From the IMG/VR virus record IMGVR_UViG_3300042691_019786: a stretch of 64,000 bases of DNA. One strand, written 5' to 3'. The stretch is from a virus. Shown one piece after another: positions 1,668-59,794 of the stretch. The position numbers were made by a program, and so were the translations under genes. Within the stretch, counting starts at the first letter, position 1, and every line of letters starts with the position of its first letter. The notes beneath the pieces are model-generated. The model had not been told where the DNA came from and searched no databases. It saw only the letters and a program-made list of their open reading frames with translations.

Positions 1668-2006
1668 CTATTTTATGTTTACTATTATTATATTCTTTTC
1701 TAATTTCTCTGCTTTGGTGATACTATCTTTAGTTCCTTTAGATTCACCGTCCCAAAATGCTATTATTGTATCAGCATTGTTAACAATATCGGTATTTCTC
1801 AATGGACCAGCAGCTGGTCCATGTTTCTTCCAATCTGGTTTAAAGATAAGTGTTTGAATGTTATTTTCATTTGCATATCTTTCACCCAACGAATCAGCAC
1901 CTTTTGCACCACCACTAACCAACAATGTTATAGTAAATGGTGATAATGTAGTTTTAACCAATTCATAATCGTTGAATCCTCTGCTACCAATTACTGCTAC
2001 TTTCAT
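1668..2006 (-). CDS. SLOG-superfamily (DUF2493/YspA-like) protein
   Basis: VIGSR, VSGGAKGAD, AGPLRN and AFWDGESKGT motifs. Confidence 0.8.
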   Translation of the reverse strand: MKVAVIGSRGFNDYELVKTTLSPFTITLLVSGGAKGADSLGERYANENNIQTLIFKPDWKKHGPAAGPLRNTDIVNNADTIIAFWDGESKGTKDSITKAEKLEKNIIIVNIK

Positions 2007-2992
2007 GCTATACTTTCGCCATATTTAATTTTTGCTTCTTTAATTTTACCCTCACCAGTGTTTTTCTCAATCAACTGTGTTTTAAGTAAAAATCTGATTA
2101 ATTTTTCAAACAATTCTTGGTGTTCTGTCATAATTTGAGATAATTCAATATCAAATGGGTTAACCCAATGCAAAGATGCAATATCATCAGATGGTTCAAT
2201 TCTACCCCATAAGAATTTACCAATAAACAATGTTGTCATGATACCAGATTCTGTTTTAGCATAACGCCAATCGTTTACAGCACCACTACAAACATACTTT
2301 ATATCTTCAATTTCAGCATTACCACCAGTTTCTTCTTTAAATTCACGTTTTGCTGCTCTTTCCCATGACTCATCAGTTCTATCAACAAACCCACCAATAA
2401 AACGATAATTGTCTTCGTTTGGTTTTTTAGCCATTAGGATTTGCCCTTTATCGTTATATACTGTAATATCAACAGTAGGATAAGTAACTGGTCTAGCAGC
2501 GTATGTTGCGTGGATTACACCAGCTCTAAAGTCTTCTGATGCTAATATTTTTCTTGATACTTCTTTACGTACTTCTGTACCAGAGTAAAACACATCGGTT
2601 GTATATTCTATAATCGGATATTTACCATTATAGTAAGGGATAAATGAGTCACGACTACCATACAATACCGCTGATAAATCACCAAAAGGCACTTTAATTT
2701 CAGCATCTAGCGTTTGCGACCATTGTGTGTCAGAGCGTTTATCTTTAAGTGGTAACACAACAGCTTCTGGGTATGCTGCTTGTATCATTGCTCTTCTTGT
2801 TGCAAAATCCAATGGATTGTTTTTTGTGTTAGGTATAACTGATACACCTAAAAAGATTATTACTTTTTTATGGTTTTTAAACACCATATCTAATAGTTTC
2901 TTTTGACCATCATGTAGTTGGTGTACTTGAAACCTTGCTACGACAACACCGATTTGATAATCGGTTGCGTTAATATTTGATTTTTGTTCCAT
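2003..2992 (-). CDS. Bifunctional NMN adenylyltransferase / Nudix ADP-ribose pyrophosphatase (NadM-Nudix)
   Basis: RFQ..HDGQ (HxGH-like), NPL and SGTEVR motifs; C-terminal Nudix box GGFVD...AAKREFKEETG; start moved to MEQKS, downstream of a promoter motif. Confidence 0.9.
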   Translation of the reverse strand: MEQKSNINATDYQIGVVVARFQVHQLHDGQKKLLDMVFKNHKKVIIFLGVSVIPNTKNNPLDFATRRAMIQAAYPEAVVLPLKDKRSDTQWSQTLDAEIKVPFGDLSAVLYGSRDSFIPYYNGKYPIIEYTTDVFYSGTEVRKEVSRKILASEDFRAGVIHATYAARPVTYPTVDITVYNDKGQILMAKKPNEDNYRFIGGFVDRTDESWERAAKREFKEETGGNAEIEDIKYVCSGAVNDWRYAKTESGIMTTLFIGKFLWGRIEPSDDIASLHWVNPFDIELSQIMTEHQELFEKLIRFLLKTQLIEKNTGEGKIKEAKIKYGESIA

Positions 2993-3058
2993 ATCTTTTT
3001 TATTTAATACAAATGTATGAAAAAAAATCCGAATAATCAAATTATTCGGACTCTTTTT

Positions 3059-21155: not shown

Positions 21156-21156
21156 G

Positions 21157-21228
21157 TACAGCGTGTTGGAATCGAACCAACGTCCCCCACTTCTATAGAG
21201 TGGACTCTACCACTGGAGCTAACGCTGT
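21157..21228 (-). tRNA. Atypical tRNA, anticodon ATA
   Basis: Cloverleaf; ccact-ctATAga-agtgg; no nucleotide 26. Confidence 0.55.
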
Positions 21229-28259: not shown

Positions 28260-28331
28260 TTATATTCGGTGGGAACACTATATCATCCGCTCATAGAGTC
28301 TGTCAATAATATAGGTTCATCACCTCACTTG

Positions 28332-28402
28332 TATTGGGTACGGGATTCGAACCCGTGTCAACCGCTTCACTGCGGCCATCCTATCCACTAGACGAACCCA
28401 AC
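28332..28402 (-). pseudogene. tRNA-like gene (Glu/Asp-type body) with a 6-nt anticodon loop
   Basis: gccgc-agtgaa-gcggt; other arms intact. Confidence 0.55.
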
Positions 28403-29996: not shown

Positions 29997-30188
29997 ATTT
30001 TTTATCTTTAATCATATTTGTTGCACAACAATCATATAGTTCTGCTATGTTTTTCTTTCCAGGTACATTTAGATTATCCAGTAACCCACTATCAATCCAT
30101 TTCTGAATTATTTCTTCACGTATGTTTTTCATATGTTCAATATTGTCTGATATTGAATGACCTAAGTTTTCCATGTTCTTAATTTTTG

Positions 30189-30259
30189 TTGGACTGGGAA
30201 TTTCGAAATCCCGACTTCTGCCATGTTAAAGCAGCACTCTGCCTCTGAGTTACAGTCCA
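30189..30259 (-). tRNA. tRNA-Val(AAC), unusual A34
   Basis: ctgct-ttAACat-ggcag. Confidence 0.7.
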
Positions 30260-30271
30260 ATATGCTAGGTT

Positions 30272-33240: not shown

Positions 33241-34434
33241 TTATAACTTGTAAAATTCTCTTCTTATTTTAACCAATAAAGTATTAACCAATTCTGGGTC
33301 AATCTTGTTTGGTAAGTCTGATTCGTCAAAGATTCTATCCATCTCTTTGATTTCAGCTTCTGCTGTATCAATAAGTGTATCTAAATCAACTTCACCACGT
33401 CTAATCGCTAACAATTCTTTAGCGTCTGGTCGTCTAACGATAATACCTTCACCTCTACCAATTTCTTTAGCCATTCTGATTAATCGCATACAATGCATCA
33501 TGTTTTTACCGTCAATCTTTTGACCATGTGCTTGTGTGTCAACATAACGCTGTTCATTTCTGTTAGCCAACCATTCTTCATACTCTTTGTAATCTTTACA
33601 ATGCATTGAGTAACCATCTTTGTTATAGATAATGTTACAGATAGGTTTTTCACCTTTTGGTATACTAGATAACCTTAATTGATTTGATTCAGCAGCGTTT
33701 GCACCTTCACCAGTCTTAACAAGACCTTTATATCCAAAACCCATAGGGTAACCTTCTTCTTTTCTCCAAGCTTTAGACTTTTCTCTAATATCTTCTGGAA
33801 TGTTTTCGTTAAAACAGTTATTAGCATCAACATCAAAGAAAACAGCATAAACATCTCTAGCGTTAGGTACGTTAGTTACACCGCAAAACTTTTCATCATA
33901 TGTACCGTTATTCCACACTTTCCATGGAATAGATTTTTCACCTTCAATAACATATACAAAGTCCAATACATCTTTACGAGTTACTTTATCTTTCTCCCAA
34001 TTCTGTTTTTTGTTAAGACCTCTAGCTTTTTGGATTTGCTGTACAGCATAACCAGCAAATGAGTTCTTACACCTTTTGGTAATAAAATCAGCCTTGTGGT
34101 CCAATACATATTGGAACAATGGATGTTTTGTGATGATACAATCTTCTGGTGTGTTAAGCAACTCTAAAACTGTAGGATTTGAGCTTCCCATTAGTTCTAA
34201 GAACCTTTTTAACTCCCAACCAGTATAGTCAGCATTAACATTCAACTGTTCAACATATCCAGTACCCAAGATATTATCAATAGGTAACATGTAAACGAAT
34301 TTTCGGTCTTCGTCAGACGTTGGTGTCTGAGTACCATAGGCTTGACTACCAATAATGCATTCAAAAAGAATCAATCCATTCTCTTTAAGGTAATCGTATG
34401 TAATTTTCTGTGTCATATTCTTAATTTTTAACAA
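33241..34434 (-). CDS. Pol-beta-superfamily nucleotidyltransferase (YcgL/RlaP-like)
   Basis: GSQAYG....SD.D, NP.VLE and K...H..RL...IR.G motifs. Confidence 0.85.
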   Translation of the reverse strand: MLKIKNMTQKITYDYLKENGLILFECIIGSQAYGTQTPTSDEDRKFVYMLPIDNILGTGYVEQLNVNADYTGWELKRFLELMGSSNPTVLELLNTPEDCIITKHPLFQYVLDHKADFITKRCKNSFAGYAVQQIQKARGLNKKQNWEKDKVTRKDVLDFVYVIEGEKSIPWKVWNNGTYDEKFCGVTNVPNARDVYAVFFDVDANNCFNENIPEDIREKSKAWRKEEGYPMGFGYKGLVKTGEGANAAESNQLRLSSIPKGEKPICNIIYNKDGYSMHCKDYKEYEEWLANRNEQRYVDTQAHGQKIDGKNMMHCMRLIRMAKEIGRGEGIIVRRPDAKELLAIRRGEVDLDTLIDTAEAEIKEMDRIFDESDLPNKIDPELVNTLLVKIRREFYKL

Positions 34435-39712: not shown

Positions 39713-40426
39713 TTAAGCTAATTTCAATGGTCTTAAATATTCTCTTAGGAACGCATTAACTGGTCCACCAATTTTTTCTTCCCATTGTTTATAATTCTTA
39801 GCATTTTTCTCTTCCAATTGAGATAAAGCTTTCTCTGATGGCTTGTGTCTACTCCATGGTAACGTTTCTGGTACAAAGTCTGGATATAACGTTCTGTTAA
39901 ACACCCTTTCATCAACTAAGAAAACAAACGCTGTTAATTGGTCACCCAAATCTGGTTCATGAAACTCTTGCAACAACACACCAGCTTCACGCATAGTTTG
40001 CATGTGTCTATTCAAAGTTCCCAATCTTTCTGGGTTGTTGTTTGTTGTACCACCGTTAAGAATAATAAATGTTTTATCTTTATCAGCCCATTTGTTATAT
40101 ATTTGTTGATGTGGTTTTAACCCTTCAACAGTTCTACCATAATCAACGACAGCGTGACCAAATTGGATTCCTTGTTGAATCGGGGACATGTTATACGGAA
40201 CCAACCCATACATTCTACGTTCTAAGTACATTTCACTCTTACGTGGTGTTGAATCAGCTTTAACTTTACATAACCCTAAACGTCTGTAAAACTCTTGCAC
40301 ATCAATTTTTTCTTCATAATACGATTCTTCGTAAAATGCCATAGATGTGTCCCATGATGAAATGTCTAATATTCTAACATTTGCATCTAAACACCATTCA
40401 TATCCAGTTTTTAATATCTTTTCCAT
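39713..40426 (-). CDS. Pth2-like peptidyl-tRNA hydrolase domain protein
   Basis: IQ.GHAV, IILNGG and F.EPDL...LTA motifs. Confidence 0.6.
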   Translation of the reverse strand: MEKILKTGYEWCLDANVRILDISSWDTSMAFYEESYYEEKIDVQEFYRRLGLCKVKADSTPRKSEMYLERRMYGLVPYNMSPIQQGIQFGHAVVDYGRTVEGLKPHQQIYNKWADKDKTFIILNGGTTNNNPERLGTLNRHMQTMREAGVLLQEFHEPDLGDQLTAFVFLVDERVFNRTLYPDFVPETLPWSRHKPSEKALSQLEEKNAKNYKQWEEKIGGPVNAFLREYLRPLKLA

Positions 40427-41733
40427 TAATTTCCTATTTCAATTAAATGTGATACAGTACATTGTGCTGAGTTATATACTATATATTCGTTATTTCTTAG
40501 GTCAGCGCCACCTTTTGCAAACACACTATCAAATCCTTCATTATCTAACACTTTCTTAGATAACTTATAACAGCTTGAGTCATGGTGCAATATTTCTTTT
40601 TGTTTACCCAAATGCACATCAAACAATGCCAAAAACGCTTTGTTATCACCACCATGAGCCCAATAAGAACCTCTTAACGATGTGTAACCAATAGATTTTT
40701 GTGCTTTGTCAGCAAAGTAGATACCATCACCAAACATTGACCCAGTATGTACCGCACCAGATGGTCTGATAAGTAACCCAGTTTGTAAAATGTTAAACCA
40801 GTTCTCATTTCTTGACCCATGCCAGTATAGTCTACGTTTCTTAACTTCAACTTTATCCATGTGTTTATCAAATATTTTTTGTGTTTTGTTGTTAACAACC
40901 TTGAACACACGTTTCATTTGATTCACATTTGGACCCATCAATTTTTTGATAAGTTCAAGCGTTTCAGTATCATTTTCAACCTCAATAGATAATCCCATTT
41001 GGTCTAAGATAGTAACTTCAGATACTTCTTCTTTTTTACCTTCAGCTTCAGCCTCAGCAGCTTTCTTAGCAGCTTCTCTTTGTTGTTTAATCAACTCAAC
41101 TTGACCAGCCATTGTATCCAACGCTGATTGTTCGTTATCAATCAATCTTTGTGCGTTAGTCAAACTAACATCATTACTAATCTCTCTAAACAAATGGTCT
41201 TTTACGTTATCCATTCTTCTAGGGATAATTGTATAAAGTTTCAATAACATATCATTGATATGTTTGATATCTACACCAATAGCAATCAATCCACTAATGT
41301 TAGTGATAATCTCTTGTGCAGCGGTAACTTGTTGTTCCGATACAGCTTCTTGCGTTACCTTATAGTTACGTTGGATTGATTTGTTGGCAAATGACATCAA
41401 TTCATCAACCAATTTACGCACAATCTCATCTTTGATATTTGCAACTTTATTATCAACTGGTTTTGATTCATCCACAACTGGTTCAGCCAACAAATCAGTT
41501 ACATCTGTATAACCTTTTGTTTTTGATAGTTTTTGTTTCAACACACTATCCCATTTTGAACTAGGTTTATATTCAGTTGTTAAAGACTTGCCAACACGAC
41601 CATATTCACATTTGATACGGCCATCTGATAATTCTTCCATAATATAAACTTTATTACTTTGGCTGGTCAAACCATTATCAACTGATACATGTATCAGTTT
41701 TGCGTATCTTAAACCGTTCTCTTTTACTATCAT
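40426..41733 (-). CDS. WGR-domain poly/mono(ADP-ribose) polymerase
   Basis: YGRVG (WGR-like), LYT.IP regulatory helix, WHGS, G.MFG.GIYFA..S..Y and NEYIVY (H-Y-E triad). Confidence 0.9.
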   Translation of the reverse strand: MIVKENGLRYAKLIHVSVDNGLTSQSNKVYIMEELSDGRIKCEYGRVGKSLTTEYKPSSKWDSVLKQKLSKTKGYTDVTDLLAEPVVDESKPVDNKVANIKDEIVRKLVDELMSFANKSIQRNYKVTQEAVSEQQVTAAQEIITNISGLIAIGVDIKHINDMLLKLYTIIPRRMDNVKDHLFREISNDVSLTNAQRLIDNEQSALDTMAGQVELIKQQREAAKKAAEAEAEGKKEEVSEVTILDQMGLSIEVENDTETLELIKKLMGPNVNQMKRVFKVVNNKTQKIFDKHMDKVEVKKRRLYWHGSRNENWFNILQTGLLIRPSGAVHTGSMFGDGIYFADKAQKSIGYTSLRGSYWAHGGDNKAFLALFDVHLGKQKEILHHDSSCYKLSKKVLDNEGFDSVFAKGGADLRNNEYIVYNSAQCTVSHLIEIGN

Positions 41734-48529: not shown

Positions 48530-49654
48530 TTACAACATTTTATATAACGTTTTATCGTCATAGTTAAACATATATTCTTCAACTGATGCTATTTTGTAAT
48601 CTTTCAACCCAAAATACAACCCAGTAAAGTTTTTTAAATCATATTTCTCACAAACTTCAAACACAGCAGCAGCAAACTTTTTTTGTTCTGGTTTTGTTAC
48701 GTTTTTTGGTTTACGCAACTTTAATTCATCCCATACAACATTCAATTTTGCAACCAACGCATCGTAAGACTCTTTAAGACGATTTAATTCTTCTGTTCTT
48801 TCTGGGAAAGTAGCAGCAAATTCTTCTATCTCGTTAGTTTTTACAATAGTTAATATGTTGTGTTCAGCAGTTTTACCTTTCAAGTGGTGTACCGCAACAT
48901 ATGCTGGATTTTTCACTTTAACACGATTGTCATTACCATCACGTACAACATAACCTTCTTCAGACCATGGCATACCTTCAAATGTTTTCAACAAGTGACC
49001 AACATTTTTTGCGTTTAAATCAAAAGATTTTACCAATGGTATATCCAATGATACCGCAGTCATTTCCAAGTCTCTCCCAGACAACTCAACAAGTGTTTTT
49101 CTGTTTCTAACAGCCAACAAAGTCGCTGATGATTCACCATGTGGTTTTACTACTATGTTATATGGTGTAGTTAACTCAAACACATAGATATAATCATAAT
49201 TTAACAAACATGCATTGAATGTGTATTTGTTGTTAACAGTATCCCAAAACAATTCGTTAAATTTAGTACCATTTTTGTTGTTAACTTCACCTTCACCGTT
49301 TGCAGTACCAGTAGTACCAGCATACCATGTCATGTCGTGCCAATCATAATACACTTGTATCATAGTACCATCCAATTTTTCAAGTACTTGTGCAGTATTC
49401 CAATCTATTTTAGCAGCGTTACCTTCTTCAGAGTTGAAGAATTTTCTAAACGCCAAAGACATTACGTTCCAAGTACCTTTTTCAAGGATGATTCCACGAC
49501 AATCTTGCATCTCTGGCAATGACATAAGTGTTGGTGACACTAATTGGTCATACTTCAAGAGTATTTTGTGTTCATACTCTCTAGTTTTTAAAGAAAAGTC
49601 TTTGATTGTTTTTTCTAAACCGTGTGTTCTTAAATATTTTTGTATAGCTAACAT
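48530..49654 (-). CDS. Rnl1-family (T4 RnlA-like) RNA ligase
   Basis: CRG, KFFN, EKLDG, FEL, EGYV and VKVK...Y motifs. Confidence 0.9.
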   Translation of the reverse strand: MLAIQKYLRTHGLEKTIKDFSLKTREYEHKILLKYDQLVSPTLMSLPEMQDCRGIILEKGTWNVMSLAFRKFFNSEEGNAAKIDWNTAQVLEKLDGTMIQVYYDWHDMTWYAGTTGTANGEGEVNNKNGTKFNELFWDTVNNKYTFNACLLNYDYIYVFELTTPYNIVVKPHGESSATLLAVRNRKTLVELSGRDLEMTAVSLDIPLVKSFDLNAKNVGHLLKTFEGMPWSEEGYVVRDGNDNRVKVKNPAYVAVHHLKGKTAEHNILTIVKTNEIEEFAATFPERTEELNRLKESYDALVAKLNVVWDELKLRKPKNVTKPEQKKFAAAVFEVCEKYDLKNFTGLYFGLKDYKIASVEEYMFNYDDKTLYKML

Positions 49655-50951: not shown

Positions 50952-51848
50952 TCATTGTTTTTTTATTTCAGTGACAATACCACTTATCATAAATGATTTA
51001 ATGTCTTGCCATTTTGTTATTTGATTGCTCATAACTGGTTTACCACCATCTGGGTTAATCGCAATAGTTATATGTGGAATTTCATTTTTTGATGGATAAC
51101 CGCTAACTCTTACAGCCATAGCTTTATCTGAAAGACCTAACGCTTCAACTGTCAATGTAACTTCTTTACCTAAATCAGTTTTATCTTTAAGTTCACCCAA
51201 ATTTATTGTCATATGATGTGTTATCACAGTCCAATCTTTTGGTATCCATATACCAAGTTTATCCAATAACGTACCTTTGGATTGTCCATCCAACAAAACA
51301 CAAGAATATAACACATCTGATTGTTTATACATATCTTTAGATTCAACTATTTTTTTAACAGTCAATGGCCCAACAGATTTATGTGAATCCATCATCATTT
51401 TTATTTTATCTAATGGAACTCCATGTGTATTTGACTCAGCTAATTGCTCAGCAGTCAAGTTACGAGTGCCAACATCATGTATTTGTATGTTGTTATCATC
51501 AAATCCCATTTCCAACGCTGCAACAACATATGCTTTAGCCTCATTGGCTTTGATATTCGTGTTATCTATTACAACTGGACTAATACCATCTTTCATAGAT
51601 TTGATTGCGTTAGATAAGTTCTTAGAGTGCATTCTAGACAAATCTTTAAAGTCTCCAGACTCTATCATTTTAGCAAAGAAACCTCTGTAGTCACCAGTAG
51701 CTTCAATTAAATCATCTGTTGAATGAATTATCCCTTCACCCATTAGTGATTTCGCCATTGTTGATTTTCCAGCCCCAGGAATACCACGCATCACAAACAA
51801 TTTTTGTGATGGTCTAGTTATTTCGATATTTAAAACATTTTTTTTCAT
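50952..51848 (-). CDS. P-loop polynucleotide kinase fused to a 2H cyclic phosphodiesterase
   Basis: GIPGAGKST, DNTN and HGVP motifs; HMTI and HITI. Confidence 0.82.
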   Translation of the reverse strand: MKKNVLNIEITRPSQKLFVMRGIPGAGKSTMAKSLMGEGIIHSTDDLIEATGDYRGFFAKMIESGDFKDLSRMHSKNLSNAIKSMKDGISPVVIDNTNIKANEAKAYVVAALEMGFDDNNIQIHDVGTRNLTAEQLAESNTHGVPLDKIKMMMDSHKSVGPLTVKKIVESKDMYKQSDVLYSCVLLDGQSKGTLLDKLGIWIPKDWTVITHHMTINLGELKDKTDLGKEVTLTVEALGLSDKAMAVRVSGYPSKNEIPHITIAINPDGGKPVMSNQITKWQDIKSFMISGIVTEIKKQ

Positions 51849-57112: not shown

Positions 57113-58243
57113 TCAAAAAATAAATATATCTAGATAAAGTTTTTTAAAATTATCAGTTTCTAGTCTTTGTATTTCTTTACCTAATTCTGGTCCTTGTTTT
57201 AACCCCATCTTTGTCATTAGGTCTGAACCATTAACCGTTAATTTAAATAATAAAAATGTATCTATAATCTTTACATCAATACCACTTAATTGAGCAAATC
57301 TAGTTATTTGTTCTGCTGTTACACCAGATGTCTTTTCAGCTTTTTTAAGCGTTACAGCTGTATCAATCGACAAATTCAATAGACTAATCAAAAATGTAAT
57401 AGCTCTTATTTCATCAATTGAGTATTTTAATTTGTTCAATTGTTTTGTTAATAAATCAACTTTATTATTCTTTAACAACATTGCTAAAACAATAATTATA
57501 TCATTATCTTCAATGAAATTTTTATTAACATTAACATCTTTAAAAACCCAATCAAATAAATTGTATTTGTCAATCATTTTTAAAAACGATTTTACAGATT
57601 TTGCTGATTTGATACCTTTCAAAAACTCATCTCTGATTCTTTCACCAGATATACCTTCCAAACTAGCATCTTTTTGCAATGCAGCGTCAACTGATGGGTC
57701 TAATTCACTACCAAATCTACCAGCAAATCTAATTGCTCTTAATATACGTAATCTATCTTCACCAAATCTATCTTCAGCTGCACCTACAGTCCTTACAACA
57801 CTGTTTTTAAGGTCTTCTATACCATCAACCAAATCAACAACTTCTGACGTGTCTATATCGTAAAATAATGCGTTGATTGTTAAGTCACGTCTTTTAACGT
57901 CACCTACTATATCTGTAAAACTAACACCATCTGGTCTTCTACCGCTAGATAAGTCTTCCCTAAAAGTTGCGATTTCGTATTCACCCATATCAGTAAAGAC
58001 GTTGATAACACCAAATGCTTTACCAGTTGGTAAAGTTCTAAAACCACCTTTAGCCATTATGTCTTCCACTTGGTCTGGGATAGCATCGGTTGCCAAATCG
58101 TAATCTTTAGGTGTTTTACCTAACAACGCATCACGCACTGCACCACCTACAACATATAGGTTAAAACCATTTTGCTTAAAAACATCTTTTATTTGTAAAA
58201 TGTCTTTTGGTATTGGCATATCAAATATAATTCTCTTTTCCAT
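57113..58243 (-). CDS. cca: CCA-adding tRNA nucleotidyltransferase (class II)
   Basis: VGGAVRD...DYD, RRDLTINAL, EDRLRILRAIRF and ERI..E motifs. Confidence 0.92.
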   Translation of the reverse strand: MEKRIIFDMPIPKDILQIKDVFKQNGFNLYVVGGAVRDALLGKTPKDYDLATDAIPDQVEDIMAKGGFRTLPTGKAFGVINVFTDMGEYEIATFREDLSSGRRPDGVSFTDIVGDVKRRDLTINALFYDIDTSEVVDLVDGIEDLKNSVVRTVGAAEDRFGEDRLRILRAIRFAGRFGSELDPSVDAALQKDASLEGISGERIRDEFLKGIKSAKSVKSFLKMIDKYNLFDWVFKDVNVNKNFIEDNDIIIVLAMLLKNNKVDLLTKQLNKLKYSIDEIRAITFLISLLNLSIDTAVTLKKAEKTSGVTAEQITRFAQLSGIDVKIIDTFLLFKLTVNGSDLMTKMGLKQGPELGKEIQRLETDNFKKLYLDIFIF

Positions 58244-58781: not shown

Positions 58782-59201
58782 TTAATTATTCGTTTTGTCA
58801 ACAAAATTTAAAATTAATTTATAAGCGTCAATAATTTTATTCATATATTCAACATTTTTAACATCATCTATCGTCAAATTACCATGTAAAAGACCAAAAA
58901 ATTTATTTATAGTTTTAAAGTGTTTTATTGCAATAACATTTTCTTTTTCATAAATTGATGAAGGAAAGAATATGTATTTCCAAACACTTTTTAAATCATA
59001 ATATTCATTTCTAAATACTTTTCTTACTTTTGATTCAACAGTGTTATCACTTTTTATAGTTATTTTAGTAACATATAATTCACCATCAACTTCAAATGGT
59101 ATTATTTTGAATAATTCACTTTTTTTATTTTTGAATAAGTGTAATTCTGTTTTAGTTAAATAATTTTTAACTTCTAATTGTTTTTGCTCTACTGTTTTCA
59201 T
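58782..59201 (-). CDS. Hypothetical protein
   Basis: ORF. Confidence 0.55.
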   Translation of the reverse strand: MKTVEQKQLEVKNYLTKTELHLFKNKKSELFKIIPFEVDGELYVTKITIKSDNTVESKVRKVFRNEYYDLKSVWKYIFFPSSIYEKENVIAIKHFKTINKFFGLLHGNLTIDDVKNVEYMNKIIDAYKLILNFVDKTNN

Positions 59202-59279
59202 ATTAAATTTATTTTATTTTTAGTTATTATTTTTATACATAGACACTGTGTCTATGTTATTGTCTATGTTAAAATAAAT

Positions 59280-59309
59280 TTAAGGTGGAGCTCTGTATAT
59301 CTACATCAT
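59280..59309 (-). CDS. Putative amber-readthrough mini-ORF M-M-(TAG)-I-Y-R-A-P-P
   Basis: ATG ATG TAG ATA TAC AGA GCT CCA CCT TAA; RAPP matches an arrest-peptide motif. Confidence 0.55.
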
Positions 59310-59320
59310 AGTATTAAAAT

Positions 59321-59671
59321 TTAAACGTTGTTATTTATCTCCCTTCCCAATAATGGAAAAGAACTAGTTAGTCTTCTGCTAGAATCAGAAGGTTCAAATG
59401 CTATTGCTGTTATTTCATTGTTGATGTTTGGCTCTCTAAATATTGTGTACTTGATTCCTCTAGAATCAGCTTTCTCTGATAGTCTAACTAATTCTTCTTC
59501 GTTAGCGACTGTCAATAATGCCAGATAATTTGATTTTGATTGCCATTCTGTCGCTTCTATAGGATGAGCGTGTTGGAAATCTATGGCAGCATGTGCCGAT
59601 TGTACCGCTTGTGTCGGTAATGATAAGTCGCGTCTTGTGACAACTCTTAATTTTTCGTTAACCTATTTCAT
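59321..59671 (-). CDS. Pth2-like peptidyl-tRNA hydrolase with an in-frame TAG at codon 3
   Basis: ATG AAA TAG GTT...; VVTRRDL...Q.AHA...F.EP....TAIA. Confidence 0.78.
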
Positions 59672-59723
59672 AACTTTTTTTTAATAAATATATCAATAAT
59701 AATGCCAAAGTAAACATTATTTG

Positions 59724-59794
59724 TGGTCTTAGAGGGAATCGAACCCTCACTATCGGTTTTAGAGACCGTTACGCTGCCGTTACATCATAAGACC
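59724..59794 (-). tRNA. Amber suppressor tRNA (CTA)
   Basis: Cloverleaf; acggt-ctCTAaa-accga; own promoter motif at about 59806. Confidence 0.88.

Follow-up and report, generated by a model that had tools for sequence, protein, structure and literature searches.

The Locus and Its Phage Context

The DNA that was analysed is a 64-kb stretch of a viral genome, hereafter called the window, which is AT-rich (31.7% GC), mainly transcribed from the minus strand and home to 34 tRNA genes. Its gene content includes NAMPT, NUDIX, RlaP, PARP-like, DNA and RNA ligase, kinase/CPD, CCA-adding enzyme and FKBP isomerase genes, and the window represents an auxiliary region for tRNA/RNA repair in the genome of a huge phage. 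The closest relatives are IMG/VR contigs of 137-430 kb and GenBank phages of 460-735 kb; megablast of the window against GenBank phages gave no matches. The features relevant here are listed below, those from the family A gene to the tRNA(CUA) being referred to as the module.

38-1666, NAMPT
2003-3040, NUDIX protein
33241-34434, minus strand, RlaP-type nucleotidyltransferase, part of a tRNA/RNA repair set around the module
40426-41733, PARP-like protein
48530-49654, minus strand, Rnl1-type RNA ligase, same repair set
50952-51848, minus strand, kinase and CPD-like domain, same repair set
57113-58243, minus strand, CCA-adding enzyme, same repair set
58782..59201, minus strand, family A gene, 139 aa (MKTxEQK..Y[LI]xK[TS]xxH[LV]F), in a conserved position behind the mini-ORF
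59203..59283, minus strand, leader-spacer RNA structure (fold -18.3 kcal/mol, z -2.5)
59280..59309, minus strand, amber-gated mini-ORF, ATG ATG TAG ATA TAC AGA GCT CCA CCT TAA (MM-stop-IYRAPP-stop)
59321..59671, minus strand, Pth2-like ORF, 116 codons including the TAG, then TAA (PF01981, phrog_1866, AF2, Foldseek)
59663..59671, minus strand, the gate ATG AAA TAG: start, one sense codon and in-frame amber, followed by GTT (Val)
59672..59722, minus strand, A/T-rich spacer between tRNA and ATG, with no Shine-Dalgarno (SD) site
59723..59794 (ARAGORN) or 59724-59794 (Rfam RF00005), minus strand, tRNA(CUA) of the amber suppressor type (60.1 bits, E 3.5e-12)

Three further tRNAs on the minus strand of the window are unusual: a tRNA-Tyr with anticodon ATA (21156-21228), a tRNA with an 8-nt anticodon loop (gtga; 28331-28402) and a tRNA-Val with anticodon AAC (30188-30260). 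Four relatives from IMG/VR (L005, L016, L018, L022) carry tmRNA genes and tRNA-Met pairs 2-5 kb upstream of the module, often with a tRNA-Cys between the Pth2-like gene and the mini-ORF.

An Amber Codon at the Start of a Pth2-Like Gene

The Pth2-like reading frame begins with the gate, i.e., ATG (59671-59669), AAA (59668-59666) and TAG (59665-59663), and continues behind it for 113 sense codons (59662-59324, GTT plus 112 more) up to a TAA at 59323-59321. According to the original prediction, these codons make up an intact Pth2-like domain with no in-frame ATG past the TAG, and both statements proved correct: the translation matches the Pfam family PTH2 (PF01981) with 38.2 bits against a gathering cutoff of 23 (E 1.8e-9, profile positions 2-103 of 115), and no Met codon follows the TAG in this ORF, the first canonical start being a TTG at codon 50 after it. 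Gene calling with table 11 yields just a 64-aa ORF in this gene. The spacer in front of the ATG contains one promoter-like match (59714..59687, by consensus scan only). SD-like 4-mers precede only one of 67 ORFs in the window, and the absence of such a site at ATG 59671 is thus usual here.

The assignment to Pth2 is mirrored by matches to phrog_1866 (E 3.8e-13) and, for a profile of the gated family, to Pth2 chains in the PDB (E 2e-8). For the AF2 model of the protein (36 homologs, pLDDT 93.8), the top 14 Foldseek matches are Pth2 structures only (TM 0.73-0.79, E down to 3.6e-8), and the predicted fold is the same as in canonical Pth2 of archaea and eukaryotes (TM 0.75-0.79 to 3erj, 2zv3, 1xty and 1q7s). 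The gated family also keeps the R-x-D-L and Q-x-x-H-A-A motifs of canonical Pth2. However, it differs by a two-residue deletion that removes the conserved lysine of the RGK motif (G-K before A-Q-x-x-H-A), where the aligned residue is T, V, Q or L, and by E-P-[DN]-x-N-N in place of D-x-G-x-T-E; in the alignment, the acidic residue of the latter falls on the invariant Glu77 of E-P-[DN], and the remainder of the motif is replaced and five residues shorter. The lysine is reportedly catalytic, as found in mutagenesis work on S. solfataricus Pth2, and its absence leaves enzyme activity of the gated paralog unproven. Judged by its sequence, the gated protein is a divergent paralog of Pth2 with putative hydrolase activity. 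Two phages, XacN1 and LR756511 (595 kb), carry an ungated canonical Pth2 (PF01981 E 1e-31 to 1e-34, RGK kept) beside the divergent copy. Given the divergent motifs and the coexistence with canonical Pth2, a specialised function appears more likely than bulk peptidyl-tRNA recycling.

The wider Pth2-like family comprises 1424 representatives of 50%-identity clusters at E <=1e-10, and the N-termini in its gene calls are a mix of Q-containing, truncated and other forms. In Xanthomonas phages XacN1 (L070, AP018399 ~243.7-244.6 kb) and Xoo-sp13 (L052), the gated paralog is fused, with an N-terminal H..HDIGKP domain and a C-terminal Pth2-like domain; this form is preceded by an SD site and ATG-AAG(-AAG)-TAG, and its annotated start is an ATG 4-5 codons past the TAG.

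Conservation of the TAG Across Phages

Homologous DNA was gathered without regard to the TAG from four sources, i.e., three GenBank huge phages, 45 IMG/VR loci, cultured phages, and nine phage-like contigs filed under MAGs. Directly ahead of the domain, 64/64 homologous loci (window included) have TAG as the in-frame stop and none has TAA or TGA; TAA terminates ~80% of genes here. At a 70% identity threshold these loci fall into 24 clusters, at 50% into 14, and their GC contents range from 0.23 to 0.66. In 63/64 loci, the TAG is preceded at a distance of one to a few codons by an ATG or GTG, and the leader peptides between the two vary (MK, MT, MTH, MKN, MKQH, MKDT, MKKPFYY and others). In phages of hosts that use SD sites (L002, L056, L079, L081, Xoo-sp13, XacN1), a strong AAGGAG or AGGAG stands 7-10 nt ahead of the ATG in front of the TAG. 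The base after the TAG is a purine in 22/24 clusters and the following base a T in 21/24, so that the next residue is usually Ile or Val. TAGRTTAA is not enriched as a general motif in the window (9 found vs 11.9 expected), and a purine follows the TAG in 5/11 terminators of the window, which leaves the contrast between gate and terminator not clear. Database proteins that look full-length carry a Q at the gate position, i.e., the TAG was read as Gln by the gene caller.

The cultured phages with the module are Acinetobacter phage ME3, Tenacibaculum phage pT24, Xanthomonas phages XacN1 and Xoo-sp13, and Mycobacterium cluster C phages. Ungated homologs were found at L080, L084 and L085, and a tRNA(CUA) still lies near the first two. 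At L085 (Logan contig SRR21686423, 45% GC), the ungated homolog overlaps the end of the upstream gene, and 8 nt behind it lies a tRNA whose anticodon loop has 8 nt (ttca). A weak homolog in Prevotella phage Lak-B5 (L053) stands behind ATG AAT ATC TAA, with a tRNA of anticodon TTA ~600 nt upstream, and may represent an ochre version of the gene-tRNA pairing.

The Suppressor-Type tRNA

A tRNA with a CUA anticodon about 50 nt upstream of the gene, as originally described, is recovered by both ARAGORN and Rfam, at a distance of 51-52 nt from the ATG. It forms a complete cloverleaf that covers the Rfam model in full length (positions 1-71), with the anticodon loop CUCUAAA, discriminator A73, an A.A mismatch at 27:43 and no encoded CCA; an IMG/VR relative (L005) carries an identical copy. 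The Trp-like character that had been noticed in the anticodon arm is evident from 15/17 positions shared with the tRNA-Trp of the window (CGGT-CTC[T/C]AAA-ACCG). Identity over the whole tRNA is just 58%, with A73 vs G73. Similarity did not assign the window tRNA(CUA) to an isotype: the closest isotypes are scattered at <=77% identity, and acceptor and discriminator features are heterogeneous.

Across loci, 39 distinct suppressor tRNAs were found, all of which have the loop CUCUAAA and vary in their acceptor stems. A similarity comparison among the 39 gave no common isotype, as would be expected if the identity of the inserted residue were of little importance. Of the 64 fetched flanks, 54 contain a tRNA(CUA) (34 upstream and 20 downstream of the gene, in 53/54 cases on the same strand), with a median gap to the gene of 100 nt in these 54 loci. 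The original prediction had raised the question whether homologs keep the TAG only where the suppressor is present. The TAG is invariant, and the tRNA accompanies it in the 54 loci just mentioned; in the other 10/64 loci no tRNA(CUA) was seen, three of these having flanks too short to judge.

A Second Amber-Gated Element and the Downstream Gene

Eleven nt past the stop of the Pth2-like gene begins the mini-ORF, which repeats the gate cassette of the Pth2-like gene with an in-frame amber codon of its own and ends in a RAPP arrest-type motif. This design is unique in the window and in the syntenic 137-kb relative (G001), the expected number being 0.03 per 64 kb. A similar mini-ORF lies near the gene in 47/64 loci and ends in RAPP, RGPT, RPP or KPP. 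Behind the mini-ORF, the spacer is predicted to fold such that one arm (59270-59283, containing the stop of the mini-ORF) pairs with a second one (59203-59216), the latter ending 2 nt before the ATG of the next gene; an inner hairpin is formed by ACAUAGACA (two copies) and UGUCUAUGU. Other loci have the same architecture with different sequences, the region of the mini-ORF stop pairing just before or over the next start codon. Indeed, native arm pairs have a mean of -11.3 kcal/mol vs -6.2 for swapped pairs, and 0/5000 permutations reach the native mean, which indicates covariation. Since the stop region of the mini-ORF pairs with the next start region, the arrangement looks like a read-through-dependent attenuator, i.e., one that would need UAG read-through and for which stalling is predicted. 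Between mini-ORF and next gene, 59237-59269 (minus strand) holds TAGACA/TGGACA-type repeats (ACATAGACA twice and an inverted copy), and similar repeats occur in the spacers of L007, L020 and L033; these may form alternative hairpins or serve as a promoter-like -35 element or as a binding site for a protein.

The gene behind this spacer in the window, family A, has zero matches in Pfam or PHROG, and its AF2 model (pLDDT 79) has no significant fold match, the best being VIA (Z 5.2, integrase core) at noise level. Across loci, a gene of 100-150 aa follows 40-125 nt after the mini-ORF and belongs to at least three unrelated families.

Read-Through as a Proposed Switch for Neighbouring Genes

From these comparisons, we consider it likely that the locus represents a module conserved among phages, with a phage-borne amber-suppressor tRNA that would act as the translational activator of neighbouring genes. 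The TAG is kept in all 64 loci examined, and the enzyme is therefore most likely made only when tRNA(CUA) overrides the stop; we infer the read-through itself from this pattern. Ribosomes would start at ATG 59671 and reach the UAG at codon 3, and the Pth2-like protein would be made only if tRNA(CUA) is processed, charged, and beats release factor 1. The second client would be the nine-codon leader (MM-UAG-IYRAPP-stop), whose Pro-Pro-stop end could be reached only after UAG read-through; a ribosome dwelling at the end of the leader would then open the stem in which the start region of the next gene is concealed. The original prediction had called this a local genetic-code switch that expresses the hydrolase only when the suppressor prevails. 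Its core, dependence on read-through, is supported by the comparison. The word “local” does not suit a module that is widely conserved, and “hydrolase” goes further than the protein allows, its activity being unproven.

The purpose we infer for the switch is, most likely, to couple a specialised hydrolase of tRNA esters to the activity of the suppressor, so that the enzyme would either deal with what suppression brings about or have the suppressor tRNA itself as its target; other possible purposes are timing and a feedback on that tRNA. Ungated members of the family keep a suppressor-type tRNA alongside, which argues for a functional partnership of enzyme and tRNA over an arbitrary reporter. 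More tentatively, tRNA(CUA) might be a regulatory RNA rather than a device for changing the code, and its charged level would be read by a small regulon of two clients: the Pth2-like paralog, which would close a prfB-like homeostatic loop by acting on the suppressor tRNA itself or on forms of it that are blocked or carry a peptide, and the gene controlled by the arrest leader.

Alternatively, read-through may be real and its link to the Pth2-like protein without meaning, in which case the TAG would only delay the gene until tRNAs have accumulated, and the choice of gene would be arbitrary. In recoded phages, recoded stops have been suggested to time expression (Borges et al. preprint 10.1101/2021.08.26.457843), and the recruitment of unrelated families as leader-controlled downstream gene would agree with such a timer. 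However, phages of hosts that range from Actinobacteria to Bacteroidota have one and the same paralog family as the gated client, an additional, ungated canonical Pth2 is present in two phages, and the ungated homologs retain their tRNAs (tRNA(CUA) at L080 and L084, the tRNA with the 8-nt anticodon loop at L085). We therefore regard an arbitrary timer as rather unlikely.

Possible Start Sites Behind the TAG

Expression by suppression, as favoured here, has to be weighed against the option that ATG-AAA-TAG is a tiny upstream ORF, that the protein arises by re-initiation or from a non-canonical start after the TAG, and that tRNA(CUA) is incidental to a tRNA-rich region. Several loci lend themselves to such a reading: in cluster C mycobacteriophages, the order is SD site, one base, ATG or GTG, TAG and GTG, which gives the annotated GTG the better (optimal) SD spacing, L086 and L087 have a canonical start right after the TAG, and XacN1 and Xoo-sp13 have one 4-5 codons after it, so that the gate may be bypassed or leaky in these phages. 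Moreover, the commonest codon after the TAG, ATT, is a weak start codon in bacteria. However, the codon behind the TAG is GTT, GTA, CTT or ACA in the window and at many other loci, many loci lack a usable start past the TAG, and in several homologous ORFs neither ATG nor GTG nor TTG occurs anywhere after it. The residue at this position is a conserved aliphatic across these different, often non-start codons, which indicates decoding by elongation. Finally, re-initiation would accept any stop, yet TAG is exclusive and matches the adjacent anticodon, which points to the tRNA. Such an upstream ORF, with expression free of read-through, appears improbable.

Recoding or Not

If the whole genome had reassigned TAG in the manner of code 15, the Pth2-like TAG would be one of many sense TAGs. 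The statement that this genome is not recoded was upheld for the DNA covered, i.e., the 64-kb window and the 137-kb relative: TAG terminates 8-11 minus-strand ORFs in the window, which would grow by a median of six codons if it were read through, the code-11 coding density amounts to 0.85 for the window (plus ~4% tRNA) and 0.92 for the relative, and reading TAG as sense adds 2-3% coding, about as much as reading TGA as sense. No other long ORF with an ATG-x-TAG start or in need of TAG read-through was found in these 201 kb, and only the Pth2-like gene and the mini-ORF depend on it. Moreover, the TAG of the gene family is fixed at an N-terminal position and not scattered. A tblastn screen for conserved ORFs spanning a TAG was dominated by off-frame matches, and its lone credible case (TAG 42257) proved to be a gene whose start ATG comes directly behind the TAG.

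These data speak against a genome-wide reassignment, which we consider very improbable here. The part of this genome that was read, like that of the relative, holds no identified structural genes, so that TAG may still be used in late genes elsewhere. Broader recoding in some relatives is possible: in the 735-kb phage LR756501 (L002), the homolog contains another in-frame TAG in its interior and is followed 2.3 kb downstream by two tRNA(CUA) genes, and this phage may use TAG as sense more widely.

A pseudogene or an assembly error, as might be suspected from the short ORF called under table 11, is effectively refuted, because the TAG is kept in 64 loci and in independent assemblies (in Logan SRR31615994, at 98% protein identity, and in further ones), the gene has no other defects and its predicted structure is confident.

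Comparison With Known Systems

A parallel to the suggested suppression switch is prfB, the gene of release factor 2, which is autoregulated via an in-frame UGA and a +1 frameshift and senses its own product. Both are translation-related genes with an early in-frame stop that governs (in the module, would govern) their own synthesis, such that expression reports the state of termination. In contrast to prfB, the module would decode its stop via a dedicated suppressor tRNA, and feedback by the enzyme is hypothetical.

In recoded phages (crAss-like, Lak and others), TAG is read as Gln according to “code 15” (Borges et al. preprint 10.1101/2021.08.26.457843; Peters et al. PMC9523058). Here as there, a phage tRNA(CUA) would permit translation of in-frame TAG in a standard-code host, and a regulatory or timing role has been proposed for those phages. 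However, 26-71% of their genes have in-frame stops, and coding density collapses under code 11, whereas the genome of the module reads as standard code and has the TAG at one fixed N-terminal site of one family and in the leader, beside the tRNA.

RAPP and RGPP are arrest motifs (PMC10951233, PMC12992588), and the mini-ORF resembles arrest peptides of this kind and attenuators of the SecM-secA type in its R-A-P-P end and in the pairing of its stop region with the next start (PMC10951233, PMC12992588, PMC7897499). Unlike SecM-secA-type attenuators, it is a leader of nine codons without a secretion signal, and its arrest motif would be made only after UAG read-through at codon 3. In synthetic biology, an early amber codon and a suppressor tRNA have been combined into a man-made translational AND-gate (PMC7969014, PMC13276491), of which the module would be a natural and widely conserved counterpart. 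A full-text literature search found no published description of an amber-gated Pth2-like module.

Significance

Known targets have so far been lacking for the suppressor tRNAs of standard-code phages. The authors of the XacN1 study found none for its two CUA tRNAs (PMC5852040), yet this phage carries the fused Pth2-like ORF behind an SD site and ATG-AAG-TAG. If the reading of tRNA(CUA) as a regulatory RNA is true, it would give a defined function to the “orphan” suppressor tRNAs of jumbo phages such as XacN1. The analysis also defines a large uncharacterised family of Pth2-like paralogs that is linked to suppressor tRNAs and is truncated or misread by gene callers. As the module is present in cultured phages, it is directly testable. 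If read-through is confirmed, stop-codon suppression would serve phages as a gene-specific switch, beyond wholesale recoding, and a natural amber gate of this kind could be a step toward recoding.
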